In this document: in pieces, positions 15,501 through 64,000 of the stretch
Position numbering within the stretch: position 1 is the first letter of the stretch
How the letters are laid out: every line of letters starts with the position of its first letter
NCBI GenBank assembly: GCA_036172245.1
Contig: JAYWIR010000052.1
Coordinates: forward strand, 248,001 to 312,000
Length of the DNA: 64,000 bases
Source of the DNA: Raillietiella orientalis
Taxonomy: Eukaryota
Direction: 5' to 3'
Made by a program: the position numbers and the translations under genes
Notes under the pieces: model-generated
What the model was told of the DNA's origin: nothing
Seen by the model: the letters and a program-made list of their open reading frames with translations, nothing else
Database searches by the model: none

Positions 15501-17239
15501 TGGGGTAGCTGGCTTTCCGCGCGTTCGGAATTCGGCGTGTCCTTCTTGACACGGTCCGACGTGTTCGCGTGTTCGGCGGAGCACAATGGCCCGCGTGCGA
15601 AAAAAGGATGGGATGGCTCGCGCATTCCGCTTGCAGCGTGCCCGTTCGAAACGTCGCTCCTGGAAACCCACGAGGCAGCCCGGAGACCGTGGCACCTCAC
15701 CTGCCACGCTCGATGACGTCATCGTTCCTTCCCGGAAAGCCGTTCGACTGATCCATCCCTGCGCGCGCGCTTGCCCCGTAGGCAGGGGTGGCTTCACTTG
15801 CCGACGTTGCTTCCGCGTGCAATCTGCTTTAGGGAACGGCATTTCCTGGGTCACTTCCGGTGTGACGACTTTCCTTCACTCCCTCCCCCTTCCTCCGTCC
15901 TCAAGTGCAAGGCTTCTTTCCGTGTGTTTGGCGTCGTTGCGCTTTGGGCTGCTGCTGCTGCTGCTGCTGGCGAGCTCTCCCCGTAAGGAACGTTGCATCA
16001 CGCAGAGCTGACCTCCTCGCCGTAATTGCAAATCCCATCGGCATCGAGGTGCCCCGAAGGCATGCACTTTCACGACTTTTTGGCGACGTTGTTCGTGAAA
16101 TTTCATCTCACGATCCACAGAGGAGGAGAAGGATTCTCCACGTCCGTCGTATGGAAAGCGGCCGTGTGCGTTTGGGGGTTGCTTCAGCACTTTGGAACGT
16201 GCGCGGTGGCTTCAGACGCGAGGCGCCCACCCTTTAGGCAGAAGAAATCCACCTCGGTGATTTCGTGCGCGTTGCATAATCGTTTCTTTTGCGGCCGGGG
16301 CGGACGGCCGAGCCTTTCCGGTTGTGTGCGCGGCGGATCTCCGCGTCTCCTTGGAAACCGGGCAGCGACCGCAGCACCCGGTTCGTTTCCCGGTCAGCCT
16401 TCCCGCCTCCTCTTCCTCCTCACCCTTTCTGGAATTGGGATCCTTTGGTCCCGTACGCACGCCAGCCTCCCATTCGTACTTGCGCACCCTTTCTCCCCCC
16501 CTTTCCCCCCCTTTCTTCCTTCTTGTCCTTCCAGTCGAACAACGATCCGGTTCGATTTTTCTCCCGTGTGCGCGCTTCATCGGCTTTCGAAGCGCCGTAT
16601 TTCAGCTGCGTTCAGTTTTCACTTTCCGTCCCTTCATCCCCCTGGCAAAAAAAAAAAAAAAAAAAAAAAAGGATCCGTAATGTATCCACCATTTTGGCAT
16701 CGGCTGCTGCGCTGTCTCTTTAACGAAGAATCTGCGGCTCTGCGTCGTATGGTACAGACGCGGATGCAACCACGCGAGTGCCCTCTCGCGTCGGTTAAGC
16801 GAACCGCCTTTCCACCGTCGGCCAGCGGCCCTCTTCCCAATGCGTGTGCTCTTTGAAGTGCCTCACCCGCGCGCGCGCGCACGCAAATTATCGTCTTAAA
16901 ACGGACACTCCCCCCCGCCCCCCTTCTTCTTCTTCCGCTCCCCTTCCTGGAATGCTCCTGCGCTTGCAGGTGCTCAAGGGCCGAGTCATTCCGCTCCGCA
17001 GGTCAGGCAGGACAGTTCTTTTCCGAGGAGCCGTGCGCTCCCACATTCGAGGATGATAAAAAGAATTCGGCGAGCCCACTTTGATTCCCCCCCCCCCTCC
17101 TCCGTCCAGACACACGCTGGGCCCCCTCTGCTATTTATCTGCTTTCGGTATGGTTGATTGGTTTTTTTCTTTTTCCTGCGTGTGTTTCTTCCTACGGTCA
17201 TGCGATGTAAATAACCACGTAGTCAAAATGTCCTCATTC

Positions 17240-17281
<42 letters not shown>

Positions 17282-20200
17282 TGCTGAGGCTTTTCGGAAT
17301 TTTTCTTTTTTTTTTTTCCCTCCTCCTCTGTGCGACTTCTTTTGCGCTTTCTCGCCCGCCGGCCGCCGCCGCCTCTTAGGTGCGCCTTCCGCAGTGGCGG
17401 TGGCGGTCGACGGAGGGACTTTTCCCGTTGGACTTCCGCAAGAAGATTCTGGAAGCGGGTGGACGGGGGGCCCCCGTGCCCGCGCGGAGGCGAGGTCGTT
17501 CTTGCGAACGCACGTGCTTCGTGGTGCCGGAAAAAGGCAACGGCCCAACGGTTCTTCGTGACTTATTTTTCGGACGCTTTCAATTATCGTCCGTAATTTG
17601 TTATCATTACAAAATGGAAGCTGCGTTTTCGTCATCTCGCGACTCCGTCGACGCGGACTTCCGATTGCCGTAATAAAGTGCGCAGTAAAGTCGTAAACAT
17701 CGGATCCGAAGTGTCGATCCCTCGGAGCAGCATCCGGAGATCGGATGATGCTTCGGAATCCACCGAACTGGGCCTGGCTGCAGACGTGTCAGGAATGCAA
17801 GGAATTTCTTTCTCCGGAACTTGAAAATTCGGTTTTTTTTTTTTTTTTTCTGTGTCTGTGTGTGTGTGTGTGTTGTTTTTTCTTTTTTCTTCTCCCCTCC
17901 CCCCTTCTTCCTCCTCCTCCTCTGCTGCTGCTGCTGCCGCCCTGGTTCGTCGTTACGAAGCTTATTGATTATCTCAGCGCCATCATCCTTTCGGAGGGAT
18001 GGGTGCGCCCCAATAGCTTTATAAATTCGCGAGCGCAGCATCCGGGGGGGGGGGGGGGAAGGGATCTTTGATCCCGAGCGTGTCGGAGTGGCATAACGCG
18101 TTTGCCTCATTCGTCTTGAAGGCCGAAGAATGCAGCCGGCGAGGATTTCTCACCCCTCCTCCGGTACATGGCAGCGTCGGATGTCACGGCAGATCAATGG
18201 GTTTGCGAACATCTTGAGGGATGCCGAGGCGCGTACTCGGAATTCCTTCTGCACGTTTCCTTCGGCGGGTCTTCCGAGCGAATACCGGAACGCCGGCGCT
18301 TCCCCCGGGTTCCCTGAACCACTGCATCCCCCTCTTCCCCCTCCTCCTGCTGTGCCGTTGCCCCGCGGAAGCTTCACTTTGTCCCGAATCGGGAACCTCC
18401 GCGTTTGCCTATGCATCGTCGGAGATGCCCGTCCTCCCCCCCCCCCTCCGCGCCCCGGGCGTACCCGGGTGTAAACCCCCCGCGTTCCGGACCCGAAAAG
18501 AGCTCGCGTCACGTTCCTCTTCCGGGATGGGGAACGCCCGCGCCTACGGTCATGCGGGGGCAAAGGGTGAAGGAGCCTTCGCCGGCCTTCCGTTCCCGGG
18601 GACGAGTCCTCCGTCGGCCAGAGGGACGTTTCCCGGGAACCGCTCGGTTGCTGGGCGGTGTCGCCACCCTGGGAGTCGGCGTGGGCGCTGCTTCCTTCGG
18701 TCGCCGGCTGTACTGCTGCAGCCTGCTATCGGGAGGGAACGGGGAGGGAGCCTTGGAAACGCTCCCAAACGATAAAGCGTTTTTATCATTTTCCAAACGT
18801 CGCTTCCGAGGGGGAGTGTGGGGGGGGGGGGAAATCGTTGGCCCTCCTCGCTCGCCCAATCAGAAAGCGTTCGTCCGTTGCGCGTTTTAAAAATCATCTG
18901 TCAGCAATGATCGTCACTGACGTTTTTGCTATCCTTGAACCCGGAGTGGTTTGCTTGTTTTCTTTTTTTTTTTTTTCTGCTTTTGCATTCATTCTTCCCG
19001 GTGAGAGAAGGGAGGGGGGAAGGGGGGGGGGGGGGAAGAAAGAGGAGCTTTCGGAAAACCCTTTCGCAGGCCGTGGATGCGTCTTGGAGCCGAAGTTCGT
19101 TTTCCCGGAGAATCAAAAGCGTGTACGAGGAGTAGAAACGATCTTACATAAGACGTACGTGTTATTGGTACGTGCGAGTTCGGGCGCATTGACTCCTCCC
19201 TGAGATGGGAGAGGCATAATTAGATCGTATTAAAGGGAAATCGCTCTTCGATTATTTTCTCCGATATTGGACGACCCGAAGGAAAAGGAGAAGAGCAATG
19301 ACAAGAGCGGAATCGCTGTTGAATTCTGAACGCGGAACGGCGTCTCCAAGGAAACTCTCGGATTAAAGGATCGCGGCTGCATTTTGATTTCGGCAATAAT
19401 TTATTCTCTATTAGCATTTTCCTGACAAAGCAGATGGGTAGTTAATATGAGCTTGCGACTTGGTGGGGAGGAGGTGTGGGGCGGGATGGGGGGGGGGGGG
19501 ACGAAATAAAATAAAACCTCGTCCGTGACGTAACAGGCGGAACGGTGAACTTCCCCCATCAGGAAGTTTGGGGAATTTCAATGTGAGAAAAGTCTTCAAA
19601 AAGGAGGCTTTCGGAGTCTTTCACCCGGCTGTGCGCCAGAACCCCCCGCCCTGTGCCCGTTGGCGCCCGAACCGGGCCGTCCCGATGCGCGTGGGTGGGT
19701 GTTTTGCGGAGGATGTCCCAACCGATGCCTCGCTGGCGGGGCGCTGGGCGTAGCTCGCGCGCGTCGAAAACTGGCGAGGACTCGGATGCTCCTCCGGAAG
19801 CTGTGCTCGAGCAGAGAGCAGCGCGCACCCCATTCCCGGAAGCGCTGCTTCCCGTCGGCGCCGTGCGATCCCTCGTCCCTCCCGCTCGCCGAAAACAGCA
19901 GCTACGCTTCGTGTCGTGCGTCCAGGGGGCGGGGGGGGGGGGAGGGCATTTGCGTGAACTTCGGGGTATGGATGAAAAAAAGGCAAGGCCTCGCCCCCAC
20001 CTCACCCCCCTTTTTTCCTTCTTCTTCCAGAAAATTCAAATCAATGATTCGTTTTGCGGGATGGAAGTCAACACTCCATTCGGAGGAGAGATCCCCGTGC
20101 ATTCGGTGGCCGTTCTGGAATGGAATGCTTTGCTGACGTCGATCGCCGTCACGTCGATATCGCAGTACAACGTCGCCTTCCTCGGAACAGACGATGGCTA

Positions 20201-23200
20201 CCTTAAGAAAGTGGTCATCGAATCCAACGATGCGGGGCAGGAATATGCCAACCTGCTGATCGACGAAGGCTCCCCGGTCAACGCAGATATGCTTTTCGAC
20301 CTTCCCCAGAAGCACATATACGTCATGACGACAAAAAAGGTATGTGTGTGACCCCGCGCAAGCGTTCTCATGTGGTTGCGAACCGCTCCCCCATAGATCA
20401 GCAAGGTCAAAGTTGAGGATTGTTCCATTCACAAGACGTGCAGCAGTTGTCTCGGAACTCTGGATCCGTACTGCGGATGGTGCTCTCTTCAGAACAGGTT
20501 GGGGGGGGGGGGGAGGGGGGAAACAACCCCAAAACGCCACGTTTCGCATTCGGGCTTGCAGGTGTACCTTGTTGGAAGTGTGCCACAACACGTTGGAGGA
20601 CCCCCTGTCTTGGGTTTCGTACAAGACCCAGCGTTGTCCGAACATTACGTCCATCAAGCCGGAAAGCCTGCAGTACACCACGGCGCGAACGGTGAGCAGG
20701 CCGTTCCGGTTGGGCAGGCCCTCACAGGGTGCGTGTGTGTGTGTGCGCGTGCGGCCCGTAGCTGGAGATGGGAGTGGACAATCTCCCCAACAAGCTGAGC
20801 GGGCAGTTCCAGTGCATCTTCAGCAATCCCGGCGCCAGCTCGCTCACCACGGATGCGCGGCGGTTCGAAAGCTCTCCCTCCAGCAGCAGCATATCCTGCC
20901 CCACCCCGCGCACGGATCTGCTGCCCGCCATGCAACCCGGCCAACGTGCGTAGCCGAAACGTCAGTGCTGTTCCCCACCATCTCATCTCCGTCCCGCAGA
21001 CCACTTCACCACGGTGCTGTCCATCCGCATCAAAGATGGTAACGACCTGGTGGCCACCAACTTCACCTTTTTCGACTGCAACACCTACGCGTCGTGCACG
21101 CAGTGCGTCAACAGCCCGTTCCCGTGCATTTGGTGCGTGGAGGACCACCGGTGCAACCACGGCACCACGGAGAACTGCCGCAACGAATTGTACATCAACG
21201 GCATCAACGTGAGCCCCGCGCGCGCATTTATCGGCCGGCAGCTGTCGGAATGTTCCAGAACGATCGCCCGAGCCTGCGTAGCGGACCGCTGTTCTGCCCC
21301 AGGATCGAGCAGCAGAGGCGGGAGGATTCGAACGAGCTGCTGGTGGCCGCGGGCTCGCACAGGAACATCAGCGTCCACGTGGACAGCATCGGCAACATCA
21401 AGGTAGGACGCTCACGGCCCACGCACCTTTTATCAAAGGAGTAGCAGCAGCTTAGTCAGATGAGATTTGTGTGTCAGTTCAACATCGAGGGCCGGGTGCG
21501 GCAGGTCAAGGCGCTGCTGCTGGAGAGCGACATATACTGCCAGGAGGTGGAGTTCAGCTACAGCTCCCCGGCGCCGAACGTCACCGCATCCTTCGCCGTG
21601 ATCTGGGACGGCTCCAAGCCGCTCGACAACCCGCACAACATCCACATTGTGGTGTACCGCTGCCAGCAGATGGCGGACAGCTGCGGCCTGTGCCTGGCCC
21701 TTCCCGCCAAGTACGGCTGCGGCTGGTGCCAGTCCTCGTCCCTGTGCAAAGTGAAGGAACAGTGCGAGCAAGGGATGTGGCTCAACCAGTCCCAGATCTG
21801 CCCCAATCCGGAAATCATCGGATTTGAACCCAAGTCCGGACCCTGGGAAGGGGGAACCAACGTGACCATCTACGGGATCAACCTGGGCAAAACCTTCCAA
21901 GACATCTACGGGGGCATCCTGGTTGCTGCCATTTCGTGCTCCCCCTTCGAGGAAACCTACGTCCAGACCCAGCAAGTGACTTGCAAGCTAAACAGTCCGG
22001 GAGAGCCGATTAGCAGAAAGGGACCAGTGGTAGTAAAAATAGGGGACTATCGTGGGGAATCCAGAGAAAGCTTCACTTTCGTAAATCCGATTCTGGAGTC
22101 TGTCCATCCTGCCTTCGGACCGCAGTCGGGAGGAACCAAAGTGACCATCAGAGGAAGGTTCATGGACGCCGGGAATTTCGTGTCGGCCTCCATCCACACT
22201 CAGAAGTTCAACGACCATCTTCCCTGCGAAATCGTCAGGTGAGTGCTCAGCGCGCGCCCTCTCCCCCCCCCCCCATGTACTTCGTACCGGGAAAATACCG
22301 TACCGTAGCCGAAGCCGGTCCGAGGCGCAGTGCATAACCTCCGCCTCCCCCCACCTGGATTTGGGCAAACTGCACATGCAGTTCGATAACGGGCCGCGTT
22401 CTCTGAACCGCACGCTCTTCGAATACAAAGTGGATCCTGTAATCTCCGAGCTGGAATCGGGCCCGGCGGGGCAACCCAGGGTCCCGAAAGGTATTCCTGC
22501 AGGAGGCATCAAGATAGCCGTCACGGGGTTCCACTTTTTGACGGTCCAGGACCCGCGCATCTACGTGCAGTATCACAACAGGACCTTCGAGAACGTGAGT
22601 ACTCGCCCGGGGCGCGCGAGGCTCATCACCCGTCCTGGCAGCCGTGCCAAGTCATAGACGACTCCAGGATGACCTGCTTGTCCCCTGCGATCGACGTGCA
22701 CCCGGACGAGTTCCTGGATGCCGACAACCCTCCCAGCTTGGACTACGGGTTCCTTCTGGACGCGGTGCCCAGCGTCCGCAACTTGAAGTCCAAGGGAGGC
22801 ATGCTGGGTTTCCTGCTGTATCCCAATCCCGTGTTTGACGTGTTCGACAACATCAAGCATTACAAGAGCGATTACCTGACCATCAACGGTCACAACCTGG
22901 ACCGCGCCACGCAGGAGTCGGACGTCACTGTGCGCATCGGCACTCAGTTTTGCAACGTCACTTCGCTGTCCCGTTCGCAGCTGACGTGCCGCCCTCCCGC
23001 AAAGCAGCCCCCTGCGTCGGCGGCGGGCGGGAAGGAAAACTACAATCACCTGCCGGAAGTACAGGTCAGCCCCGGGCGCTTGCCGTGCAGCAGCGGCGGC
23101 ACAGTTTCATTCGTCAGGTCATCGTAGGTGGGAACCTCACGTACCACATCGGCAAGCTGAGCTACAACAACCCCGGGATAGCGGAGAGCCTCCTTCCCAG

Positions 23201-25285
23201 ATCCGCCATCATAGGAGTCATCGCCAGCGGCGCCGTGTTGATCCTGATGGTCATTTTCATCCTGATTGCCTACAAGCGCAAATCCAAGGAAAGCTCCCGC
23301 GTCGTCAAAAACATGAAGGAACAGATGGACGTGTTGGAGCTGAGGGTCGCTGCGGAATGCAAAGAAGGTTGGCCTCCCCCGTCCCGTCCGCCCTCGAGGT
23401 TCTACTTTCGCCCTCCCCCCCCCCCCGTTTTCTTGTTCTTCCAGCGTTTGCGGAGCTTCAGACGGAGATGACCGACCTGACCGGCGACCTGACTTCGGAC
23501 GGGATCCCCTACCTGGATTACAGATCGTACACGATCAAGATCCTGTTCCCGAACATCGAGAACCACCCGGTGCTGCAGCCGGAGTGGCACGAAACCTCCC
23601 TGCACGAGAAGGGCCTCTGCTGCTTCAACCAGCTGCTTCTCAACAAGACCTTCTTGCTTATCTTTATCCGGACTTTGGAAGGCAACCGCTACTTCTGCAT
23701 GCGCGACCGCGTGAACGTCGCTTCCCTGATAATGGTCGCGCTGCAGGGACGTCTGGAGTATTGCACAGACATCCTGAAGACGTTGCTGTCGGAGCTGATC
23801 GAGCGGTACAACGACGGGCGCAACCACCCGAAGCTGCTGCTCCGCAGGACGGAGTACGTCGCGGAGAAGATGCTCTCGGCGTGGTTCGCCTTCATGCTGC
23901 ACAACTTTGTGCGCGGCTGCGCGGGCGAGCCGCTGTACGTGTTGTACCGCGCGATCAAGCAGCAGGTGGAAAAGGGGCCGGTGGACGCCGTCACCGGCGA
24001 GGCCCGTTACTCCCTGAGCGAGGAGAAGCTGGTCCGCCAGTCGGTCAGCTTCGAACGGTTGACCATATACGTATCCATGTCCAAGCAAACACTGTGCGCG
24101 AGCAGAGTCGAACCCCAAAGTGAGGCTGTGGACTCTCCGGTGCGCGTGCTCGACTGTGATACGATTTCTCAGGTGAAAGAGAAAGCGCTCGATGTGATTT
24201 ACCGAAGTACTCCTTTCTCCCAACGCCCGTCGATAGAGGAATTGGATCTTGAGTGGCGTCGGAACGCCTACGACAGACTCGTGCTCTACGACGAGGACAA
24301 TACGTCGAAGGTGGAGGACGGCATGCGCCGCCTCAACACGCTGTCGCACTACAGCGTGCCCGACAACGCCAGCTTCACCCTCATGCCCAAGTCCCACCTG
24401 CAGCAGACGCCCGCGCCGTTCGCCTTCGCGCTGGACCGGACGCTGGATCGCACCCCGCGCTACGAGTCGCTCACCTTCCGCAGTGGGACCCCCCCCCAGT
24501 CCCGCACGATCTCGCCGGTGCACACCGACAACTGCAGCCTGCTCACCTGGCACCTGGTGCGCCACCACGACCAGGACGGGCAGCAGCGCAACGGCGAGCG
24601 CGGCAAGAAGATGATGTCGGAGATCTACCTGACCCGCCTGCTGACCACGAAGCTGCCCCTGCAGAAGTTCGTGGACGACCTGTTCGAGACGATCTTCAGC
24701 ACGACGCACCGCGTGAGCGCCCTCCCCCTGGCCATCAAGTACATGTTCGACTTCCTGGACGACCAGGCGCTGCAGCACGGCATCACCGACTACGAGATCG
24801 TCCACACCTGGAAGTCGAACGCCCTGCCCCTGCGCTTCTGGGTGAACCTCATCAAAAACCCCAACTTCGTGTTCGACATCCACAAGTCGAACATCGTGGA
24901 CGCCTGCCTGTCGGTCATAGCCCAGACCTTCATGGACTCGTGCTCCACGTCGGACCACCGCCTGGGCAAGGACTCCCCCAGCTGCAAGCTCCTCTATGCC
25001 AAAGACATACCCAAGTACCGGGAGTGGGTGGAACGCTACTACCGTGATATCAGTGCCATGCCCTCCATCTCCGACCAGGACATGAACGCCATGCTGGCCG
25101 AGGAGTCGCGCGCGCACGCCAACGACTTCAACTCGAGCGCCGCCATCCTGGAGCTGTACAAATACGCGTGCCGCTACAACGAGCAGATCCAGCTGGCGCT
25201 GGACGAGGACGAGTTCGCCCGCGTCAAGAAACTGCCCACCAAGCTGGAGCTCGTCCACAGTTACATGGGCGCGCCAGTAGTGTGA
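12518..25285 (+). CDS. PlexA: Plexin, class A (semaphorin receptor), about 1940 aa; signal peptide, Sema, PSI and IPT domains, TM helix, split GAP/RBD cytoplasmic region
   Basis: Exons: 12518-13669, 20031-20339, 20397-20497, 20562-20691, 20762-20945, 21000-21208, 21259-21402, 21445-22238, 22309-22594, 22642-23064, 23118-23367, 23445-25285. All introns are GT-AG and frame-consistent (5823 nt). Motifs include [97 protein letters not shown] and KLLYAKDIP. Confidence 0.97.
17242..17278. repeat. (GA)n microsatellite in plexin intron 1, one of many SSRs and homopolymers in 1-30 kb
   Basis: Perfect AG dinucleotide run. Confidence 0.95.
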
Positions 25286-25448: not shown

Positions 25449-25642
25449 AAGTTTCCTTCCCTTTTTTTTCTTCTTCTTCTTTTGTGAATGCTCTCCGATT
25501 TCGAAGCTGGAAATATCCTAGCTCATTTATTTTCCATAATTGACCCCGGACATAACATAAAGGAAAAAAAAAAAAGAAGGGGGGTGGGGGGGTGGATGAA
25601 GAAGAAGAATGAGAAAGAGATGTATATATGGTGCGTTCCTTC

Positions 25643-27871
25643 CTAGGGAGCCGTTCTGTCTTCTGGGATGCTCATCGCAGAGCTTTGCTGCGCGGGCGAG
25701 TGCGTGTGCTCGGACTCCTTCAGCGCTTCGTCGAAGCTGGAGGCGGAGGCCGACCGGGACGTCCCCATGGATGTCTGGAAGGCACGGTGACCGCACCGCC
25801 GCCGCCACCACCACCAGTTTTCCCCTCTCCCTCCTCCCCACCCGTACCTTGACGGTGTTCACGGCACTCTCGAGCTTTTCCTCGAAGGACTTGAAGGCAA
25901 CTGTGTTTTTCAAATCACCAAACTTCGCACTGAGGGACGAGCCGAGGCCGCCGAGAACGGACTGCGTTTTCTCTGCGGTTGTTTTCAAAGCCCCACTCGT
26001 CTTCTGGTATCTGGCACGGGGGGGAGGGGAGAGAGGAGAGAAAAAAAAAAAAGGCAAATAGCATTCCGCCACACATGATCAAATGCAAGAACTACACACA
26101 CACACACACACACACGCACAACACAACACAACACAGAGACCAAAAAATATATGTATATATATATGTATATATGTATATATATATATTTCTGAAAACACTT
26201 ACAGGTCTTTTGCAACGTCCATCTGTTTTCTCGGGATTGCTCCGCTTATTCCCTTGAAATCAAAAACAATGAAGCAGAGAAAAGGAGAAGGCGAAAATCG
26301 ATTACTTCTGTCGCGCAACTCGCAACATCCGGAATTCGAATTTGGGCAGCCCACTGGTACAGTGTGCGTGGGGGGGGGGAGCACGAGGGCAGGGAGGAAA
26401 ACGGGAAAAGGGGGGACGAGGAAAAAGGAAGCGGGAGGGAGGGGGGGCGCTGAAAGCGAGGTGATTTTGCACGGGTGGCCCCATGGATGCACGGATGATC
26501 ATCCTGGGAAGCGAATCCAGATTTCATCTGCACCGCATCCGTTTTTTTTTTTTTTTTTTTCCTTTTTTTTCCCCCTCTCTTCCTCTGCCCCCCCCCCCCC
26601 CTTTCTCCCAGATGTGTGTGTGTGTGTGTGTGTGTGTGCGCGACCGACGGAACCCCACTCTCTCCCCCTCCTCGCCCCTCTCTTCCCGTATCCGAAGGGC
26701 AGATCGATAGAGAACGCTCCGGACGCGGGGACGGTGGGGGGGAAAGGCTGCCCGGAGAGCGCGGGAGCACCGGCGGCGGACCAACGCACCCAAAGTCCAT
26801 CCGCTCCCGCCGCAAGCGGAATCTCCCAAAGTCCGCACGAACGTGAAATTCGCCTTCCATGGCGACCGGGGTGCGCGCCACAGCGCACCCCGGTCGCCGC
26901 ACACTTTTCGCTTCTTCCTCTCCTCACGGCGTGTCGAGCAGCCTCCTCCATCCGAGGACCCGAATCAGCAGCATCCACGCCCGCGCGGGGAGACGGACGT
27001 CCGCTCAGCGTGCAGAAACGCTCCCACGGAACTCACCAACGAAAAAATTGGGGCGTTTCCCCTCTTTGAAGCACTCGTGCAACCAACCAACTTGTTCGAG
27101 CCACCACCTTAGGGCTTGTTTGGGGGAAGCCGCCGTCACCGGGGAAAGACGGGATGGGTGCCTATCTTTCTCTCTCACCCCCCTCCACGGATGAGGGACC
27201 GCGGGTCGGAGGGTCCCAAACACGCCGTGCTCCCTTCGACGCCGACGACCTTCCCGGTGGATTCGACTGCACTTAACCCCTCCCCCCCACCCCGACTGCT
27301 GAACCTGACTTTTACGAAAACTGCGAAAGTGGCGTGCATGAACACATCACGAAGGGCCGGCCCGCCGGATGTGCGCGCGAGTACGACACCACCGGGGGGC
27401 ACGCAAGGATCCCGGAAGCAGTGCACGCGCGCAGACCTGCGGGAAAAGCGGCACGGGGCGGAAGCATTCCGTTCCTTCTTGTCCACCTCGGGGCATGGGC
27501 ACCGAAGCAACGTGCGGTCGGTTGGCCACTCCCACGTCCACCATCCGCTTCCTCCCTGGGAAGAATTCCTCCGCTGCTCTCCCATACGCTTTCGGCGTGG
27601 AAGAACCTCCCCCACCCGCTGGCGCCATGAAAGTTGGATCGCACGTAACGAGACGGAGTGCCCTTCGATTTGCAAACGCCCTCTTTCACACGGACGATGC
27701 GCTTTCCTCATCTCGGGCGCATCGGACGAAGAGGTAGCAGCATCCCGGACTCGACCCCCTCCAGGCGGATTGGTCGGCCCCTCTCTCATCCGCTGCAAGA
27801 ACCTCCACCCTACTCTTTGTTCACTTCCTTCTTTTAAGCTGCAAGAATTTCTCTCTCTTTTCTTTTTCTTT

Positions 27872-27910
<39 letters not shown>

Positions 27911-32236: not shown

Positions 32237-35200
32237 TTGTCATGGATGTAAAGAGGACATTTGCTAAAGAGGGAGAACAGGAAAAAATAATAATAATTTA
32301 CACTTGTTATCTTGTGTCCTTATTTTACTCAAAGCTTCATTGGTCAAAACCTACCACAGATCAGCAAACAGCACTACTCAGGTATCATTAATACCAAAGA
32401 AACATACCAATCATAAAATGCATACCGAAACAAATTATGCATTGCCTTATGCAATAATCATTAGCTTACATTCGATTTCATCATTGCTTTCTACATTCAA
32501 ATTCAAACTTGAAAATCACATCAAAACACACTTGTAAATAGTATCCGACATAAGATTATGTTGTCAGATGTCTTGATCCCCTCATATGCAGCTGTGGACT
32601 AAACTGCCTCTAATTTAGTTCAAACTGGTACCAAATTCTAATTTAAATCCTATTCATACAATGTACCAATAGTGATATTTCATACAATCCGTTAACTCAT
32701 AAAAAACGTGATTTCTCCCTCACAATGTCTCTCCAACTTTCATATTCTCGTTTAACAGACACTGTTGAGTTTTTATTTAAATAAGGAGGTGCACACAGAA
32801 TACGGTCTTAAAGCACGTCGTTCAAGCTGATGTAGAATGGGTATAATTTAAGTTATGCTAAATACAGTTGACTGAACAGGTATATGGCCACATCAACGGC
32901 CTGACTGAATATATCATGTACATGCACAGGAACTTTCGGTTTACTCGATGGCCAACACATCAAGGAAGGCATCCATACCATACCAGCAATGTAACAGATA
33001 CAACTCTGTGAAAAAAATACTCTTCCACTATGATAAGTGCTTTCTCCCCAATGCACTGATGAAGTAGTACGGGCAATTTGCCGACATATAATGCAAAATA
33101 CACGCGCCTCAACAGAACCATACATATCAATCAGAAGAATCGGTTGTCCGTCAAGGCGACCTACACCTATCAGCTAGCATACACTAACCCAAAAAAACTG
33201 CGATAAATATGGGTTCCTTCATTGAACCCTAACCTTTACAAAATCCTCCATGCTGGTTTACAAAAAACAAACAAAAGAAAAAAACCTCAGCAACTACCGA
33301 AAATCATCTTCGGAACGGAGTGTACGGTGAGTTTGAGGCTAAAACTCAATTCCCAACTTGGCAACCACAATAAAAACACACACACACACACACACACACA
33401 CAAATGGCTTACTTAAAAACAACACGGGGGCGGCTTAGGTAGCACAACTGCTTACTTTCCCGTACAAGAAATGAGCGTCGCTTTTCAATGGGGAAATTGA
33501 AAATTTGGGAACATTCACGGCCCACCACCAGCAGTGCCTCCACGCAGCCACATTTCCACGAGTTTTCGAACGCAACTACGCAGTTGACGGCGGCACACGT
33601 GTTGCCGTGTGTGCCAAACGACTTTTGCACACGTCCAGGAATATTTACGTTATCCCGGACCGAGGAGTTTTCTGATCCCTCTCAGGTCGTTAGGCAGGAA
33701 AGGGCCTTCGGTCCGTGGAAACCACGCGAAACGCGGTCCAAGTGGTCGCCGAGCGGCCGCCAACGACTCCCTTTTTCTGTGACATTCACGCGCGGCGTAA
33801 ACAAAACCGAGATTTCCAGGGAGCAGCCAAACGTTACGCGCGCGCGTGCCTTTCTTTTTTCCTTTTCCTCTCCTTTTTTTTTTTTTTTTGGAATCAACCT
33901 GATGGAGGGAACCGACGACACGTTTTCGCTTCTTCGATCGGATGACGTGACAAGACTGGTTCGGAGACGTGACCTCTGCCCTTTTCCTCCTCCTCCGCGA
34001 TCCGCAAACTCTTACTTTCGATCTGGGAACCCTGCGAGTCGGGGTGACCTTCCGCTCTTCCCTCGATCTGCCGAAGTGCCAAGGGGGGAACTGCTTCCAA
34101 AATGGCACGTCCCCAGCGGGTACAAAGTTCACATCTTCCGAGGAGAGCACAACCGACGTTCTCGAAAAAAAAAAACAGCAGTCCGCGGCGAATTTCGAAT
34201 GCGTACGGGGAAAAACGGTTCCCGCACGACCCGCGTTTTCCGGAATGGTGTCCGCCGTGCAACGCTTCAGCACAATTACGAAAACAACGTGTGTTTCTTT
34301 GCACGCCCCGAGGTTGTGCTCTTCCTCTCCGTGAATCACGATGACGAAATCTCGTTTTATCGTCAACCCTCGATGTCTACAAGCGTCTGGGATTGCATCG
34401 CGCCTTTTATTGACTTTACTGAAATCAGCCGTCCTCGAGATCCTCTTCATAGATACAGAAGCCAAACTGAAATCCGGACGGATTTCTCCCACCCTAAATT
34501 TATAATCATTCCTTTACAGGTGTTCTGATGGGATGTTACGTTCCCTCAGAACATAATTAAGTACCCGTTTCCCGTTCTGATGGAACTGGCAATCAGATGA
34601 TTCAATACTTATTCAAGGAGAAATAAGACGAAGCGCTTCGGTAATCCGAAAATGTATTTCCATTTTTTCTGATCCTACTCAAACGAATTTCCTGCTTTGT
34701 GCCCATTAGGGGAGGGGGGGAGGGCATTTTCTAGGAAACGATGGACCCTTCTCCAAGGAACGGAAAACTGAACTGGGACTTCCCAGTTCTCATCAGTTTG
34801 TCGCCTTTAATTCGAGAAGAGCAATTTAAGCTTTCTGTTGAGCTCGATTGCAGCATCAGGTTGATCTGCAACCGTCAATGAAGTCTGCAAGCGTGTTAAA
34901 AATCGAATGCTGATGACACATCATCAACCACTCATGACGTATACTAGATATGTGACGCATCAATGCGAATGGTGGTTCCAAGAACGTAATTTCAATGGAA
35001 AAGGGCCTTTGCTACAAATAGCATGTTTGTTAGTATTACTGTCAGAGATCAACTGGTGCAGAGTAATAAATCCTTATCCCATCCCTGACCAACGCTCTCG
35101 AAGTCCGCATCACGTGCTCGTTCTCAACCCTTTGTTTTCTACCAATGGACGTTTCTTGGTCCCTGACTTCAACCTGCGGCAAGTAACGCTGCTATCGCTA

Positions 35201-45200: not shown

Positions 45201-45499
45201 GGGAGTGCCGGACCGGACCGAATATCCCGCGCTCCGAAGGGGATTCAGGAAGGCTAGCGCTCGGTGCTGGAGCTGGACGCCAAAGACACAGAGGTACGCG
45301 GTCAACGGTCCCTTCTCCTCCCCTCCCCCCCAAACCAGTGCCTCTCCCTCGTTTCCACCCTCCCGCACTTGCATGCGGAAACCGAATCCTCATCCGAAGG
45401 AGATGACTTGAGGAGGTTCGAGCCTGCAGCGAACATTCTCACATCGCTGCATGGTTACGGTTTTGTTTGATCGATCGGCGAGTTGTTTTTTTTCCCTTT

Positions 45500-45850
45500 C
45501 CCTTGCCTGGGCGAAATCGATTCACCCCACCCCGAGTCGCACTGGGGGTGTCACAACAGGATTTTTCCACAGGAAACTGGGAATTCCAGCCCCTGTGGGG
45601 TCGCTACTGGACTGATGTTGACGGAAATCCCTTTGGGGCTCTTCCGTTTCCGATGCTGCTTTTCTTCTGGGTTTTTTTTCCTCCGGGTATTCTTTTTTTT
45701 ATGGGGGGGGAAGGGTGCCTATACTGTCGCAGGTGCGCGGAATCAGAATCCCCCCTCACGCACCTGCTTGCGGGCGGTACCGCACTCCGGCCCCTATGGG
45801 GACGTTTCAGGGCTACCTTGCGGACCCCGTCCGGCACCGAAGACTGACTG
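45500..45850 (+). mobile_element. Short LINE zf-RVT relic
   Basis: MLLFFW...YCRRCAESESPLTHLLAGGTALRPLWGRFR. Confidence 0.6.
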
Positions 45851-45944
45851 CTTAAGGGTCGTTTTCCACCTTGCGGGAAGGCCACAAAGCTCTCCTCCGA
45901 ACACTGTCCACTGTCCACCGCATCCGAGGGTGCGTGACCCCCCC

Positions 45945-46380
45945 AGGTTAGGGGGTCACCCCCGAGGGATCACTCTACGAATCCAGGAAGGACTGCGGAG
46001 GAAGAGGTCCATTCCACTCGCGCTTGGGAGCGGGAACCCTGAAGGGAGCCCTCCGCCTTGGTTGCCTCCGGAGGAATCCCCCGGGTCGTGGGGTCTCTCT
46101 TGTTTCTTCTCCCAAGGGAACCCGGAAAAGGATCCGCTCTGGAATTTTCTTATCCGGAGGGATCTCCCGAAAAGGGTTTGCTCCCCTCCTCCTCTGAAGG
46201 GAACCTCTCAAGAGGCGCTTCCCATTTTCCCTGAAGGGCTCACCCCGGAGGGAGCAGCGCGCTTCTGGCACCTCCTTCCTAGGGGATATCGACCGGCTTC
46301 CTCTTCTCCACCAGAGGAAAACCCCGGGGGTCCCCTTGATGTCCTGGAAGGACCCCGAAGGGTCGACTTCCGATCCCGGC
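45945..46380 (+). repeat. Hairpin-dense dispersed repeat, copy 1
   Basis: Shares the core ctacgaatccaggaagg...cgcttggg...ccctgaaggg...tggttgcctccggaggaatccc with the reverse complements of 46900-47050 and 60010-60320. Confidence 0.75.
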
Positions 46381-46554
46381 CGGTAGACGGAGGCATCTGG
46401 GAGTTTCCGGCTTCCACCAGAGCCGCCGATCCCGAGTGCTCGACCTCATGGACTTTTGAGCTGGAGCGTGGTACTGGGTATTCCGCAGGAAGACATGCAG
46501 TGGTCCCCTGTGCTCATGAACGCCCGCACCCTCCCCTTAAAGTGGCAGGAATCG

Positions 46555-46750
46555 TTTATTTTTTTATAAATACATGCCCCGGCATGACCGAGTGTCATTC
46601 AGTGCCACGGCACCCAAACCAGCGTCATCTTGCGGGGGGGACTCGAACTCACCGCTCGCCCCCTGCTCTCGTCGTCGTCGTCGCTACTTCTTCCCCGGGC
46701 GGGATTCGAACCCGCGACTCCAGGCGCGCGGCGCCTGGAGTCGCGGGTCG
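46555..46750 (-). mobile_element. tRNA-like/SINE-like fragment with A-rich tail
   Basis: The minus strand has a T-arm/B-box gcggg-TTCGAAT-cccgc and ends in atgccggggcatgtatttataaaaaaataaa. A related tail occurs at 61099-61149. There is no clear A box or full cloverleaf. Confidence 0.4.
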
Positions 46751-46899
46751 CGGAGGCCGCAGCCGCGGACCGAATTTGGAAAATCCGGCCCACGCTGGCG
46801 GCCCCATGTGACTTTCCAAAAGATCGAAGCGATTATTTTCCGTGCCGTCGGCTGCAAGGTGTGCACCACCCACGGAGCATCGCCTCCCTCATTCTCCCA

Positions 46900-47245
46900 T
46901 CTTCCTTCGTAGAGAACCGGGAACCCCTGGAGGGTTCCCTTCGGAGACGACTAGGGCGATAAAGATCCCCTACCAAGCGTAAGGAAGGAGGAAACCCCTT
47001 TCTCCGAAGTCCTTCCTGGATTCATAGGGTGGTCCCTATGGGGTCATCTCTCAACTTGAAGAGTCACACATGCACCCTTGATAGGCGGCGACAGCGTCGA
47101 AGAGCTTCATGACCTCCTCCCCCCTCAAGGAGGCGAGCAGTCCTTCAATAATCCTTGGGAACCAAAAAACGGAAAACCCGGTAGAAAAAAGGGAGAAAAT
47201 CTGGAACGAAGCAGAGAAAACGGGAGAACTCCAAAGGGATTTCCA
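46900..47245 (-). repeat. Hairpin-dense dispersed repeat, copy 2
   Basis: Colinear with 60180-60512 (ttcccttcggagac, ccaagcgt, ccttcctggattcataggg, accaaaa...gaaaacc, aa(a/g)ggatttcca). Confidence 0.75.
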
Positions 47246-47910
47246 CTGCGGAGACCCACGGGACTGACCACCGAGCCTGCCTGGAGGTCGAACGACAGGT
47301 TGGACGCCCGGCTGCTCGCCAGTGCCGGCAAGAAGAAGACGAGGGGGGGAGGGTGCTTCTCGTGAAGAACGTGATCTCTCGCACCGTCCTTCCAACATCT
47401 TTCCCGGGGACCGATCGCTTCGTGGGATGTCCTGGCCCGGAGGCATCCACCTTTTTCCGATGAACCCGGGCACGGGCCACACAAAGGGAGGCACCGGTGA
47501 GGCGGAAGCCGCGCAGCCGCTCCTGAGCGCAGCAAAGCCGCACCTAAAGACATTGCCGTCGTCGTGGGCGACCTCGGTCCGTTGGGAGACATCAACCATT
47601 TCCAAGACGTCCGAGGAAGGACGGCATATCGGCCCGAGGAGTTCGGACGGCTGTGGTAAGAGCGAGCCACAATCGACCATGTCCTCTGCGGTAAAGAAAT
47701 CGAGAACCGCATCCGGGGATGAAACGACCGTGCTCAGACCAGACCCTTTGATGCCATTAGCCCTAAAGACCACGAATCCTCTGAAGAAGAGAGGCACAGG
47801 GGCAGCGCTCGTCTGCATGCCCACCCAGTCGAGACGCTTCGCTGTGACCAACGTCTTATCGAGACAGTTCTGCGAGATACGACGGTTTGCAGAGTGCACG
47901 ACTAGGACAG
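47236..47910 (+). mobile_element. Degenerate apurinic-type (APE/EEP) endonuclease domain of a LINE ORF2
   Basis: Ordered motifs across frameshifts: ISTAETH (cf. LQETH), TRGGGC (cf. GGGVA), IAVVVGDLG (cf. GDFN), RATIDHVLC (cf. RIDY) and SDQ (cf. SDH). Confidence 0.6.
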
Positions 47911-48469
47911 GCAGAAGCACACCGCCCACGTGTTATGCAACAGTATATTTCAGATGCAGGAAGTCGAGATAGGAAGCGTACCGGGAGCTGTACATCCCCA
48001 AGATTCCTCCCTCTCGAAGCACTGGAACCCGTACGAGAGGCGGTACGTCTTTCAAAACGTCAAACGGAGTAGTCGGCGTGCTGGAAAGGGAGACCATGGA
48101 AATGGCATCCCAACCTAGGATGAAGTTCCCTCAGGGTTCTTCAAAGGACCGGGAGTAGTCCATCTGTGCGATTGGGTTCCAAGGTCTTCTTTTTCTGTAG
48201 CATCTTCATCAACCGAGCTCCGAAGGAGTCTGCAGATGACAGACTGGGACGTCCTGTGCCTCTCTTCTTGCCTACTAAAAAGAGATATTGGCATCAGACG
48301 GTGCGGAAGATTTACAGCGTGGACCATCCGTTGGAACCTCCAAAACATACAAGAAGAGTCTCTCCCTGTACAATATTCAATGTGAACTGTAGTGTGAGTG
48401 TAGCAGAGTGCGTTTATTAACAATGAGTGCTTAAAATGATGTTCAAACTTTGTGGCAGCTTTAGTTTAA

Positions 48470-49620: not shown

Positions 49621-50874
49621 AATTGAATCAAGCTCTGATTACCACTCTAACTGACCACCTTGATTCAAACTGACACCACGAATAAACCAAGATTGCGTCC
49701 TTGGTAACAATCTATTGAATTGAATCCCCTTTGTAACAGTTGGAAAAATCCACTTTCCACAGTATGATCAGTATTTTACTTGTCTTCACTCGTTTGGACT
49801 TCCATTTGTCGTTACTGTGCTTCCTCAAAGTCCTTTGTGGATCATTGAGCATCGATCTCAGAGGAGGCTAAAATAATCGAGAGTTGCAATACCTCTCTGA
49901 TAAAACCATCTGCATTCACATTATTTAAAACACGAGATTAGATGTCTGTCGTCAGGGCCATAATTGCGATATTTTTGTGACGACTCCACTCGAGGTGAAA
50001 TTTCTCTCATCCTTGAATGATGTTCCGCGGTCAGAAAGCTTTTTTTTGTATTTTTTTTTTTTTACATACAACTTGTTCTTGACAGCTTCCATAACATTGA
50101 AGATGATTAGATGTAAACGTTGTTGCGATCCAAATGATTATAATGTTCAAATGGCTGGCTTATTGAGGCCTCTTGTTCAAATGAAGATTTTCGGCACCGC
50201 CTTTGAATGAGAAGCCCCAATCTGTTCTAGGGTTACTGAATGTAGATGCAAACGGATCGTCCAACATGCATTCGGTGAATCCGGAGCAAGATATGTAAAG
50301 ATAATTTTTAAAGAATGACATGGTACAGATATCGTACCCAGAAGGATGACAGTACCTTACAAAGAGAGTACGCTGTACAGCTCGTAGGCACGATCTTACT
50401 CCATTGTAAACCATCCCGTCAATCAGAGCACTACTGAAGAAACCATCCCCCTCACACATCCGCTTATGGCATTTTGTATTCACTAAGCTTTCGAATGGCG
50501 TTGGAATTTTTCTACAGTGAACCATTCTCAAGATTCTGATCTCCAAGTCTTGCTGGATCACCCTCGGATGTCTTGATCGAAGCTTCTCGAAAATTTCGAA
50601 GCTTTCCGGAACACATGGGCAATCATGTTGACTTTCCGTTTTGATTACGCGGGGCTCAAAGTTCCCTCTAATTCAAGAAATCTTAGAATCACGGCGATTT
50701 TCGACGGCAACGCAATCGAGTCTTCCGATGCATTCGGTAGGTTTCCGTAATCGTACGGAAAATACCCCAACTCAGGTGGGAACAGTGAGTCGGACGGAAT
50801 GGGTGGTCCTCGTCCCCCTGCGTTTGTTGTTTTGGGGCACAGGGAGTGCAAATCGCACGCTGCACCCACAAGAG

Positions 50875-52091
50875 ATGCCTCGCCCTGGGTACACGATTGT
50901 GGTGATGTCTGGAAAAGGAGGAGTGGGCAAATCGACAGTTGCTGTTCATTTGGCCCTGAATTTCAAAAGGATGGGAAAGACTGTTGGCATTTTAGATGTT
51001 GATCTCTGTGGGCCGTCAGTACCGAGAATGCTAGGATTGACCGAGCGACAGATTCACCAATCCCCTGAAGGGAAAGTAGCAATTTTGTTTTTACACCATG
51101 GTATCGTATCCAAATATTTTTTAAATGGTCATGTATTTCAAACGCTTATTGAGTGCACATACCGTGCTTTTATTTTATTTGTCTGCGGTAAATGAATGTC
51201 ATGTTTGGATCTCAGGTGGGTACCTGTGTATGCTGATACGGAGAAAACTTTGCAAGTTGTATCCATTCATTATTTGATGGAAAATAAAGATGAAGCTGTT
51301 GTTTGGAGAGGACCCAAAAAAACAGGTAATTAGGCAGACTGGTGTACAAATAAACTCTTGTAAGAGTTTCTATGTTGATGTTACTACATTAATATACCGG
51401 AATTCACTATTTCATTGTATTTATATGGAATTTTGTAGCTATGATCAAGCAATTTTTGGTGGATATTTGTTGGGGAAGCCTTGATTACTTGATAATTGAC
51501 ACTCCTCCGGGAACCTCAGATGAACATATATCAGTTGTTGAGCAGCTACGGTAAACTTGTCTTTCATATAATTGAGTAGCAGAATATCCATCTTTTAACA
51601 GTAAATTCTTAGACTGTAGATTCTTGAACAAAAGTGCAAGTAGTACATGTTCTTCATACATGAAATTTTCACAATAGTTTGCAGAAACAGTGTGATGGTG
51701 CCATAATTGTAACCACACCACAAGCAGTATCTGTTGATGATGCCCGTAGGGAAGTAGCATTTTGCAAGAAAGCAAAAGTCCCAATATTGGGGATTATTGA
51801 GAATATGAGTGGATACTGCTGTCCACACTGCCATGTATGTTGTCCAGAAGACATTTTTATTAACATAGTGTTCAGAATTGCTCTAACATATTCAGTTCTG
51901 GTGGTGGTGAAGAATTAGCTCAGATCACCAATGTTCCATTTTTGGGAAAAATTCCAGTGAATCCTTTGCATTACCAGACAGAAATTGCATCTGCGGTTCA
52001 AGATGGTCTGGAAATTGCTGCTATTGCACACAAACTGCTTGATATAACAGATACCTCCAAAAATCAATCTAATGCTCAATCAGTGAAATAA
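50875..52091 (+). CDS. NUBP2: Cytosolic Fe-S cluster assembly factor NUBP2/Cfd1 (Mrp/NBP35 P-loop NTPase), about 263 aa
   Basis: Exons: 50875-51071, 51216-51325, 51439-51550, 51678-51834, 51876-52091. Motifs [36 protein letters not shown] and [11 protein letters not shown]. It lacks the N-terminal Cys cluster of NUBP1. The intron 1 donor is non-canonical (see findings). Confidence 0.93.
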
Positions 52092-53020
52092 AATCAACTG
52101 AAATTTATGATCTGTATGAACTTATTCACTGGCAATTCTCAATAAACTATGTTCATTTAAGTTGACTTTTTATTTATTACAGGTGCTTAAGGCTTGTTCC
52201 GATTGGCATGCCTGAGTTTGAGAGGAGCAGTTCTCTAACAACAGTATAATTCTGTAATGAATTTCAACATTACGAACATTTTAGTGATCGCGATTTTTCA
52301 AATGTCCATTTGTTTTCCTTTTTCCTTAATATTGACTTATTTGCACATAATTTTTCAAAACATTCATCAAATAATGAGCGCAGCTTTTGTCTCAATCAGC
52401 ATTGTCTTTAAACGGGACTATCTTTATTATGTCAACAATAAAGCAAATGATCTAAGGCTTTTTTAATTAGATTCATGCAGTTAAATGCAAATGCTGCAAA
52501 ATCACCCAGATTGCTCACGTGATATTTATAAGATATTCATTTGGGGAAAACTCTTGTTTAAATTTAGGTGCATCACTTAATTTACAGGTTAAATTAGTTA
52601 TTTCAATACACACCTTTTCTAATAAAACCAAGGCATATATTGGATTTGATTCAAAGTCCCTATGATAGCATTTTATCCTGTGTACTTCAATAATGAACTT
52701 TTCACAAGTTGAAGTTCATGTTACGTGCCTGCTTTGCTGAATGGTCTTTTTGTGCAACCAAAGTTCCTAGCTACAAGATAGAAATTTCAAATTTGCAGTT
52801 TACGGTAACAGATAAATAAACTACTTGCTGGTGGTTAAAGCATAAATACAAAACCTTAACCAATAAAATAACACATGCAAAATGGCTTTCGAAATACCAT
52901 TCCCTAACACTATGCTTCCCCTTCTGATGCTTCACTCATTTTTATAATGACATTACATAAACTGCTTCCTGACAATTCCACCAATGGCCAAGCGTTTATT
53001 CACACATCCTTGTAAGATTT

Positions 53021-62632: not shown

Positions 62633-64000
62633 ATGTTAATTGAAGACAAAGCTTCAAAGGATGTAATCGAATCTCACCTTAAGAAACTGCGGAACAAGCA
62701 GGGCAATAAGGTTTCTAGATTCAACTGTATTTTTGTTATTTTAAGATACGTTTTCTCACAAACGTGGTAACGTGCATGTGATGAATCTGTACGTCACCAA
62801 AAAATCTTAGTTACTATTATTAATATTAAGTATCGCTAACTGTAGGCATGCATTGAATTTCTGTGATCCAGTGATTTGGACTTAGAGTGTGTATGTTTAG
62901 GTTTGCTTTGATTGTGATTCAAAGAATCCAACCTGGGCCAGTATCACTTACGGGGTCTTCATCTGCATCGACTGCTCGGCAGTCCATCGTAATTTAGGCG
63001 TTCACATTTCCTTTGTGCGTTCTTCACAGCTAGATACGAATTGGACATGGTTGCAGTTGTGGCAAATGCAGCTGGGAGGAAATGCAAATGCAGTTAGTTT
63101 AATGAAATTGTGTAGAGTAATTTGATTGCCTGCATAGTTAGCATTTTTCCAACAACATGGATGCGATATGGCAGATTCTCAGATAAAGTATCAGAGCAGA
63201 CCAGCACAACTGTACAGAGAAAGATTACGAAATCAAGCTGTACAAGCCTTCAAGCTGCATGGTTCTCAGGTTATTTTCATTTCTGTTCATCAGTAAACTG
63301 TCATTTTCTCACAGTTCCATCTTTCCAGTGAGAAGGAGACTAGTTCTCCTGTGGTGACGGAAACCAATTTTTTTGACCAGCACACCAATGATAATTCAGA
63401 CATGTACGTGCCAGAAATGGCGAAGGTAATTTTGGGATTTACAATTGATTTTTGTAAGAATGATTGATTTTTTTCATTTGGGGCACAGCTACACTCAAGT
63501 GTGACAGATCCTGAATTCAGTGCTGCCCAATTAGCAGGAGAACCTTCTGCTACTTTCCAGTCTTCAGAGAGTACAAAACCTAGAACCAATGTATCTAATC
63601 GTAAAATGCTAGGCAAAAAAGTATCAAATGATGTACAAGACTCACTAACAAATACTGATATCAATCTTAGATTGCCTCCAGGCCTTCAGCATTGGGTCAG
63701 CGTGTGCAAGCAAATTTCGATACTTTAGAAAAAGAAGCTGCACTTGCTGACCAAGTTAGGATTGAGAAAGGAATTTCAGAAGTGCCTAAGAAAAGGGATT
63801 CAAACAGACTTGCTTATGCCGATCCGGCTGTTGCTTCCTCAGATTCCCAGCATGCTGAACAGATTGAAAGATTGGGAATGGGGATTGGCATTCATGGGTA
63901 TTTTCAGTGTCCTCATGTATGATTTTGATGTCAATTTTGGGTTTAGTGGAATTGGCCATTCTGCACAGAGCAGCATGCAGATTATTGAACAGGAGGGACT
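62633..64000 (+). CDS. ARFGAP2: ADP-ribosylation factor GTPase-activating protein 2/3 (Glo3-type), truncated at the 3' end by the window
   Basis: Exons: 62633-62710, 62901-63092, 63138-63269, 63315-63425, 63489-63620, 63671-63897, 63947 onward. Zinc finger [45 protein letters not shown] and the subfamily motif ERLGMG...GHS....MQIIEQE. Confidence 0.94.

Follow-up and report, generated by a model that had tools for sequence, protein, structure and literature searches.

Splice donors with GA or GG account for about 12% of 297 and 10% of 623 introns in the copepod Eurytemora affinis (Robertson 2017, PMC5714493). These donors always follow an exon-end AG and almost always carry A at +3; they are found in recently gained introns, are absent from Tigriopus, and the genes that harbor them are very long (19-123 kb) (PMC5714493). 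In the animal comparison given by Frey and Pucker 2020 (PMC7072748), E. affinis and Oikopleura dioica appear as outliers with the same flanks, whereas GA-AG introns are of low frequency elsewhere.

In human, the totals of Parada et al. 2014, as quoted in PMC5714493, comprise 14 GA donors among 222,263 introns. That study (PMC4176328) validated a GA-AG intron of ITPR1 and discusses the dependence of non-canonical sites on nearby canonical ones; the GA sites of FGFR1-3 are described as relying on a canonical GT located 6 nt upstream (PMC7072748; PMC4176328). In four of five plants, approximately 0.01% of the annotated introns are GA-AG according to PMC10668435, a source which also describes intron 12 of SYMRK in Trema orientalis, where a single-base change to GA resulted in a fully functional donor. 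Among six +2T>A variants in the human minigene series of Llinares-Burguet et al. 2025 (PMC12805630), one gave full-length transcript (12%) and the other five gave none, so a GA donor is often non-functional even in a strong context.

The intron considered here is the first one of a NUBP2 gene in a 64-kb window, which is the whole stretch of DNA analyzed. Judged from the DNA letters, it is probably a real, sporadic U2-type (major-spliceosome) GA-AG intron with a normal AG acceptor, a reading that we rate somewhat above an even chance.

The NUBP2 gene and the borders of its first intron

From its predicted protein, the gene in question (Table 1) is NUBP2/Cfd1, a member of the Mrp/NBP35 family of iron-sulfur cluster assembly, which we take to be an essential-type housekeeping gene. 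With intron 1 placed at 51072-51215 and three GT-AG introns removed as well, the model codes for 263 aa and has no internal stop. The five exons, all of them open, match the Pfam profile PF10609 (NUBPL/Mrp-type P-loop NTPase) collinearly, at profile positions 5-61, 65-96, 99-134, 135-183 and 185-217; exon 1 has an E-value of 1.8e-24, with protein residues 7-63 on positions 5-61, only 6 residues standing N-terminal to the domain and no Cys-rich N-terminal extension. The GKGGVGKS P-loop and, toward the C terminus, the CPHC motif are intact. In the protein search with exon 1, named animal and fungal NUBP2/Cfd1 proteins among the best matches showed 60-67% identity, while unnamed or fragmentary ones reached 71%, the highest value found. 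The closest solved chains to the read-through translation of exon 1 are the archaeal Mrp-type proteins 3kb1 and 2ph1 and the Chaetomium Cfd1 (6g2g). In the homolog alignment, the exon 3/4 junction falls in a variable loop, where the model is longer than most homologs by one residue, and the product of the intron 4 junction is equal to them in length. Compared with the NUBP2/Cfd1 family (PF10609; structure 6g2g), all family features are present and the protein is ordinary, the additional loop residue being its sole oddity. Two AATAAA hexamers (52087-52092 and 52141-52146) lie around the stop codon, which is weak evidence, the motif being common in AT-rich DNA.

Table 1. Positions of genes, exons, introns and splice sites in the window (scores from the local donor matrix; the slash marks the exon-intron border)
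Feature	Position	Strand	Remarks
NUBP2/Cfd1 gene	50875-52091	+	five exons; gene model, 263 aa
NUBP2 exon 1	50875..51071	+	ATG, P-loop GKGGVGKS, HQSPE, then first two bases of Gly codon
NUBP2 intron 1	51072..51215	+	144 nt, phase 2, GA...AG, GC 0.33
Donor dinucleotide GA, non-canonical	51072..51073	+	context agg/GAAAGTAG
GT, candidate decoy or helper	51076..51077	+	aaa/GTAGCA; 4 nt 3' of GA, out of phase, score -0.68
GT, nearest in-phase canonical donor	51087..51088	+	ttt/GTTTTT; score -3.65, below all 16 local donors
Acceptor AG of intron 1	51214..51215	+	context TTTGGATCTCAG/gtg
NUBP2 exon 2	51216..51325	+	last base of Gly codon, then WVPVY...RGPKKT; Pfam and homolog alignment
NUBP2 intron 2	51326..51438	+	GT-AG, 113 nt
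NUBP2 exon 3	51439..51550	+	AMIKQF...EQLR; Pfam and homolog alignment
NUBP2 intron 3	51551..51677	+	GT-AG, 127 nt
NUBP2 exon 4	51678..51834	+	contains TTPQAVS; Pfam and homolog alignment
NUBP2 intron 4	51835..51875	+	GT-AG, 41 nt
NUBP2 exon 5	51876..52091	+	stop codon TAA 52089-52091; Pfam
Plexin-A	~12.6-25.3 kb	+	Sema, PSI, TIG and cytoplasmic RasGAP domains; 11 introns mapped
TPD52-like exon	25530-26078	-	Pfam
CDC123/D123	57720-55936	-	314 aa, 7 introns
ArfGAP2/3-like gene	from 62633, runs off window	+	6 introns mapped

At the donor side, exon 1 ends with ...CAC CAA TCC CCT GAA GG at 51071 and the sequence over 51064-51081 continues into GAAAGTAGCA. The acceptor side (51207-51231) is GGATCTCAG/GTGGGTACCTGTGTAT, and after 51215 it reads G TGG GTA CCT GTG TAT. 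The original prediction held that the conserved peptide HQSPEG-WVPVY needs a phase-2 junction and that its donor, GAAAGT, is GTAAGT with A at +2; joining 51071 to 51216 does yield the peptide in frame, and the letters at 51072-51073 do read GA. The predicted cDNA across this junction is CCTGAAGGGTGGGTACC, and the GA-AG product lacking an extra codon would read GAAGGGTGG. Reading the exon 1 frame onward, a stop is met inside the intron at 51193-51195, and thus retention of intron 1 would truncate NUBP2. Since G51071, G51072, G51215 and G51216 are all G, the borders can be shifted by one base either way with an identical mRNA, giving GG..CA (51071-51214) or AA..GG (51073-51216); of the three versions, only GA..AG has a normal acceptor.

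The junction was compared with homologs in two ways. In the PF10609 profile, exon 1 ends at position 63 (E65) and the Trp of exon 2 occupies position 65, so that just one residue, the split Gly, fits between them. The second comparison used 64 protein-search matches of 240-320 aa, aligned with the gene models of both donors (GA 51072 and GT 51087). Nothing stands between the aligned Gly and the Trp column in 61 of the 64, and the exceptions are two proteins with one more residue (P0045 and P0120) and one from Mortierella alpina (P0012) with 40 more, starting G-Y-V. A five-residue insertion between Gly and Trp was found in none of the 64. Moreover, all donor positions from 50990 to 51195 were combined with all acceptor positions from 51100 to 51299, irrespective of dinucleotides, and the 6989 pairs that were in frame and stop-free over the whole coding sequence were scored by an HMM of the 64 homologs. 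With 409.7 bits, the mRNA of 51072-51215 and its two one-base-shifted equivalents came first. Only 36 of the 6989 pairs had GT or GC with AG, and the best of them, 51087-51215, took rank 78 with 401.7 bits, 8 bits under GA-AG. By these alignments, the conserved HQSPEG-WVPVY is predicted to form only with intron 1 at 51072-51215, GA...AG.

Use of the GT at 51087 with the AG at 51215, resulting in a NUBP2 with five extra residues, has to be considered here, as it is the sole GT-AG pair that stays near the homologs and would be the choice of a gene predictor limited to GT-AG. As predicted, this GT is in phase and adds five residues (G becoming GKVAIL), and it is a weak donor, scoring under all 16 true local donors (Table 1). 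The lack of such an insertion in the homolog set and the lower HMM score both stand against it, as does the PDB alignment to the read-through translation (Cfd1/Mrp-type chains), which ends at G66, and we regard the use of this site as very unlikely. The other nearby GT, at 51076, is out of phase as had been stated: it lies in phase 0, and splicing from it to the AG at 51214-51215 would change the frame and run into a stop. Other non-canonical borders are conceivable, one of them being this GT with a GG acceptor (51076-51216, one additional Lys). Its donor context is average (-0.68) and two of the 64 homologs do have one extra residue at this point, while the same-mRNA alternatives GG..CA and AA..GG would be indistinguishable from GA..AG in cDNA. 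All these versions, however, need a non-AG acceptor, of which there is none in the 28 introns mapped, whereas GA..AG departs from the rule only once; together they are very improbable.

Two database proteins bear on the age of the intron position. The M. alpina protein (a public record) and P0037, both of fungal type, read G-Y... directly after the same Gly, the former with the 40-residue in-frame insertion and the latter with a divergent tail. This fits an unspliced phase-2 intron starting with GTAT at the same position and suggests that the two public records are mis-annotated, retaining intron sequence. On this comparison of protein sequences, the position of intron 1 looks old and shared with fungi, and not newly gained.

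Genes, introns and base composition of the window

The 28 introns mapped in plexin-A, CDC123, ArfGAP and NUBP2 comprise 27 with GT-AG and one with GA-AG, and non-AG acceptors were absent among them. The survey covers these four genes; the introns of TPD52 were excluded, its upstream exons not having been located by Pfam. The statement made earlier that the other mapped introns are GT-AG thus extends to 27 of 27 in the enlarged survey, and the single GA-AG of the survey does not establish GA donors as common in this genome. A broader reading would make the host, an arthropod with compact genes, a further lineage, beside E. affinis and O. dioica, that accepts G-only donors, with GA and GG at percent level genome-wide, independent of an exon-end AG and present also in old conserved housekeeping introns. 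Since only one of the 28 introns has such a donor and the window was flagged for exactly the GA feature, this has a slim chance of being correct.

Intron lengths are 36-77 nt in 22 of the 28 cases, and the genes are compact overall (intron lengths of 36-382 nt, apart from a single 6.4-kb intron). Ultra-short introns include one of 36 nt in CDC123 (56492-56457, minus strand) and the 41-nt intron 4 of NUBP2 (51835-51875, plus strand), followed by two of 45 nt in plexin (21403-21447) and ArfGAP (63093-63137), both on the plus strand. Three short in-frame plexin introns had been aligned through by tblastn; they were exposed by internal stops and resolved as GT-AG. The 45-nt plexin intron ends in a tandem acceptor, TAGCAGCAG, at 21438-21450, where exon starts at 21445, 21448 and 21451 are in frame and all open, making alternative acceptors of the NAGNAG type possible at this site. 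The long intron, GC-rich and located at 13670-20030 (plus strand), splits the Sema domain of plexin and contains long ORFs on both strands with zero Pfam matches, while the remaining plexin introns have 45-77 nt. Homopolymers of 12-13 G or C bases are present in plexin introns (20500-20512, 13690-13701 and 22270-22281), and a run of 31 A is located at 27879-27909; the assembly contains no N at the former and spans the latter without N. The TPD52-family exon on the minus strand lies tail-to-tail with the plexin stop codon (25283-25285, plus strand), about 250 bp apart.

The base composition is a mosaic at the 10-kb scale: GC is ~0.60 over 1-30 kb, 0.35-0.48 over 30-40 kb, 0.50-0.61 over 40-48 kb and 0.33-0.47 over 48-64 kb, with sharp transitions near 30.0, 40 and 48.0 kb. 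GC3 is 0.83-0.86 and intron GC 0.56-0.72 in plexin, compared to 0.34-0.39 and 0.28-0.39, respectively, in NUBP2, CDC123 and ArfGAP. GC-biased gene conversion and a recombination hotspot are possible causes. AATAAA occurs 81 times on the two strands against 32.7 expected from shuffles, probably as a by-product of the AT-rich blocks. Five long ORFs of 170-446 aa had no Pfam match: 33443-34525 and 45471-46808 on the plus strand, and 47054-47932, 6808-7983 and 50163-50672 on the minus strand. The last one lies upstream of NUBP2 and had low, uninformative Atlas scores. These ORFs may be uncharacterized genes or, particularly where GC is high, chance ORFs. Neither the Rfam nor the tRNA scan of the 64-kb window gave a match, and a scan for bacterial-type promoters and terminators, irrelevant to a eukaryote, stayed at chance level.

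The best 120 matches of the plexin cytoplasmic domain were arthropods wherever named, at 64-69% identity, and spanned insects, a springtail, chelicerates, crustaceans and a millipede. None of the protein searches turned up a close relative (best identity of 71% for exon 1 and 69% for the plexin cytoplasmic domain), and in a metagenome scan with the exon-1 peptide, 79 of the 80 loci kept were uninterrupted prokaryote-type Mrp genes and the remaining one a short fragment, again with no close relative. By these protein matches, the window comes from an arthropod lineage without close representation in the protein collection, and not from an annotated Eurytemora.

Strength and probable origin of the GA donor

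The textbook donor consensus is CAG/GTAAGTAT. With +1 and +2 set aside, six of its nine positions agree in the GA site agg/GAAAGTAG, which is U2-like; apart from +2, every informative position (A-3, G-1, G+1, A+3, A+4, G+5, T+6 and A+7) fits a donor consensus. Scored against the same consensus, the 27 GT donors comprise one with seven matches, six with 6 and twenty with 2-5. The AT-rich genes supplied 16 GT donors for a local donor matrix with +1 and +2 omitted, the 16 themselves being scored by leave-one-out. The flanks of the GA site reached 5.48 bits, a value exceeded by only one of the 16 GT donors (range from -1.9 to 6.5) and attained by 0.48% of the 2062 GA dinucleotides on both strands of the 48-64 kb interval. 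Apart from +2, the GA site is therefore among the strongest donors of the window, and it is more than a chance occurrence, as its rare flank strength is found exactly where homology wants the junction. Such flanks would be expected of a tolerated GA, and they would be a modest coincidence for an error or a null mutation striking a random donor. This argument, drawn from a sample of 16-27 local donors, was weighed as an approximately four- to tenfold shift and not as proof.

Among the surrounding GT dinucleotides, the one at 51153 scored -8.42, and none is present within the 22 nt upstream of the GA donor (51050-51071). A dependence of the FGFR type was ruled out by the missing canonical GT 6 nt upstream; the nearest GT, 4 nt downstream, could serve as a decoy or helper site. 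In U12-type introns, the donor is (A/G)TATCCTT, and a branch site resembling TCCTTAAC lies close to the 3' end. Processing of intron 1 by the minor spliceosome was rejected, as the donor reads GAAAGTAGC and a TCCTTAAC-like motif is absent from the last 45 nt.

If the intron is a real GA-AG one, its donor most likely derives from a consensus GTAAGT through the replacement of one base, T by A at +2, the intron position itself being old, and the pairing of U1, and later of U6, to the donor flanks would offset the +2 mismatch. Productive NUBP2 mRNA would then be made, possibly less efficiently, and the GT four bases downstream may sometimes be used out of frame, the resulting transcripts being lost to nonsense-mediated decay. 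A point against it is that an erroneous base call or a defective allele would likewise leave a site differing from a perfect GTAAGT by one base.

Were the A a mistake of the assembly or of base calling, 51073 would truly be T and the intron an ordinary GT-AG one with the donor GG/GTAAGT, so that one substitution restores a textbook site. However, the roughly 8 kb of coding sequence in the four genes (32 exons or exon parts) is free of frameshifts and internal stops, a sign that the local error rate is low, and a T>A substitution is atypical of homopolymer-type errors. The published GA-AG frequencies, as far as given in PMC5714493 and PMC10668435, are roughly 1 in 3,000 to 1 in 17,000 introns (0.006-0.03%), and in comparison with them, the chance of a rare error falling exactly on +2 is small. 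An erroneous base is thus quite unlikely.

Alternatively, the A might be real but belong to a defective or weak allele, a recent GT>GA mutation, probably heterozygous in the animal or pool, with GTAAGT as the population allele and with the splicing of intron 1 mostly blocked. The single-base distance to a perfect donor and the uniform GT-AG borders of the 27 other introns agree with it. On the other hand, the remainder of NUBP2 is intact, the gene is presumably of the essential type, and the affected donor is one of the window's strongest, which is expected of a tolerated GA and not of a random strike. The human minigenes bear on the same point in the opposite direction, as normal splicing was abolished in five of the six +2T>A cases presented in PMC12805630. 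We consider a defective allele unlikely. The weights given to all these readings are judgements and not measurements, formed from the published GA-AG frequencies, the apparently low substitution error rate and the donor strength.

Comparison with known GA donors

If real, this would be a constitutive GA-AG intron in an essential-type arthropod housekeeping gene, beyond the one copepod in which GA donors are common. It would be of mild interest for splice-site evolution, the kind of intron being already known, and would offer a natural test of the flanking complementarity needed for a +2A donor in a genome with ultra-short introns. For annotation, predictors and RNA-seq mappers limited to GT/GC-AG would truncate NUBP2 or add five spurious residues. 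A single unverified GA-AG case leaves the knowledge of splicing unchanged.

The original interpretation stood only in part. Its gene identity and exon borders, as well as the required GA...AG junction, are supported by the collinearity with the profile, the 64 homologs and the exhaustive junction scan. The parallel drawn with E. affinis is not supported, given the 27 GT-AG introns out of 28, an exon end of GG instead of AG and an intron position that looks old. What intron 1 shares with the GA donors of E. affinis and O. dioica, as described in PMC5714493 and in the donor survey of PMC7072748, is the GA itself, A at +3 (GAA at 51072-51074), an AG acceptor and a junction needed for the full-length protein; in the case of E. 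affinis, both hosts are arthropods. In those two species, however, the exon-end AG is near-obligate, as far as covered by the same sources, whereas exon 1 of NUBP2 ends with ...GAAGG and has G at -2. The frequencies differ as well, with about 10-12% of introns in the sampled genes of E. affinis against one in 28 in the window, and the GA introns of E. affinis are lineage-specific, new and located in very long genes, in contrast to the apparently old position and the compact genes here.

The leaky human variant ATM c.6347+2T>A resembles the predicted state of intron 1, with GT turned into GA inside a consensus donor (CAG/GTAAG) and some correct mRNA still produced, but it is, in the minigene results of PMC12805630, a disease-gene variant with 12% full-length transcript and not a fixed gene structure. 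The likeness to the sporadic GA-AG introns of human ITPR1 and FGFR1-3 and of Trema SYMRK comprises a lone GA donor in an otherwise GT-AG gene, an AG acceptor, U2-like bases at the other donor positions and a junction needed for the full-length protein. Similar to the SYMRK intron, the NUBP2 donor is most simply explained by one base change from a canonical donor, although the ancestor was GC in Trema according to the SYMRK account in PMC10668435 and would be GT here. The FGFR sites have their canonical GT 6 nt upstream, while the GT next to the NUBP2 donor is 4 nt downstream, and the NUBP2 junction is predicted from DNA. Overall, in its predicted structure, intron 1 of NUBP2 sits better with the sporadic U2-type GA-AG introns than with those of E. 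affinis.
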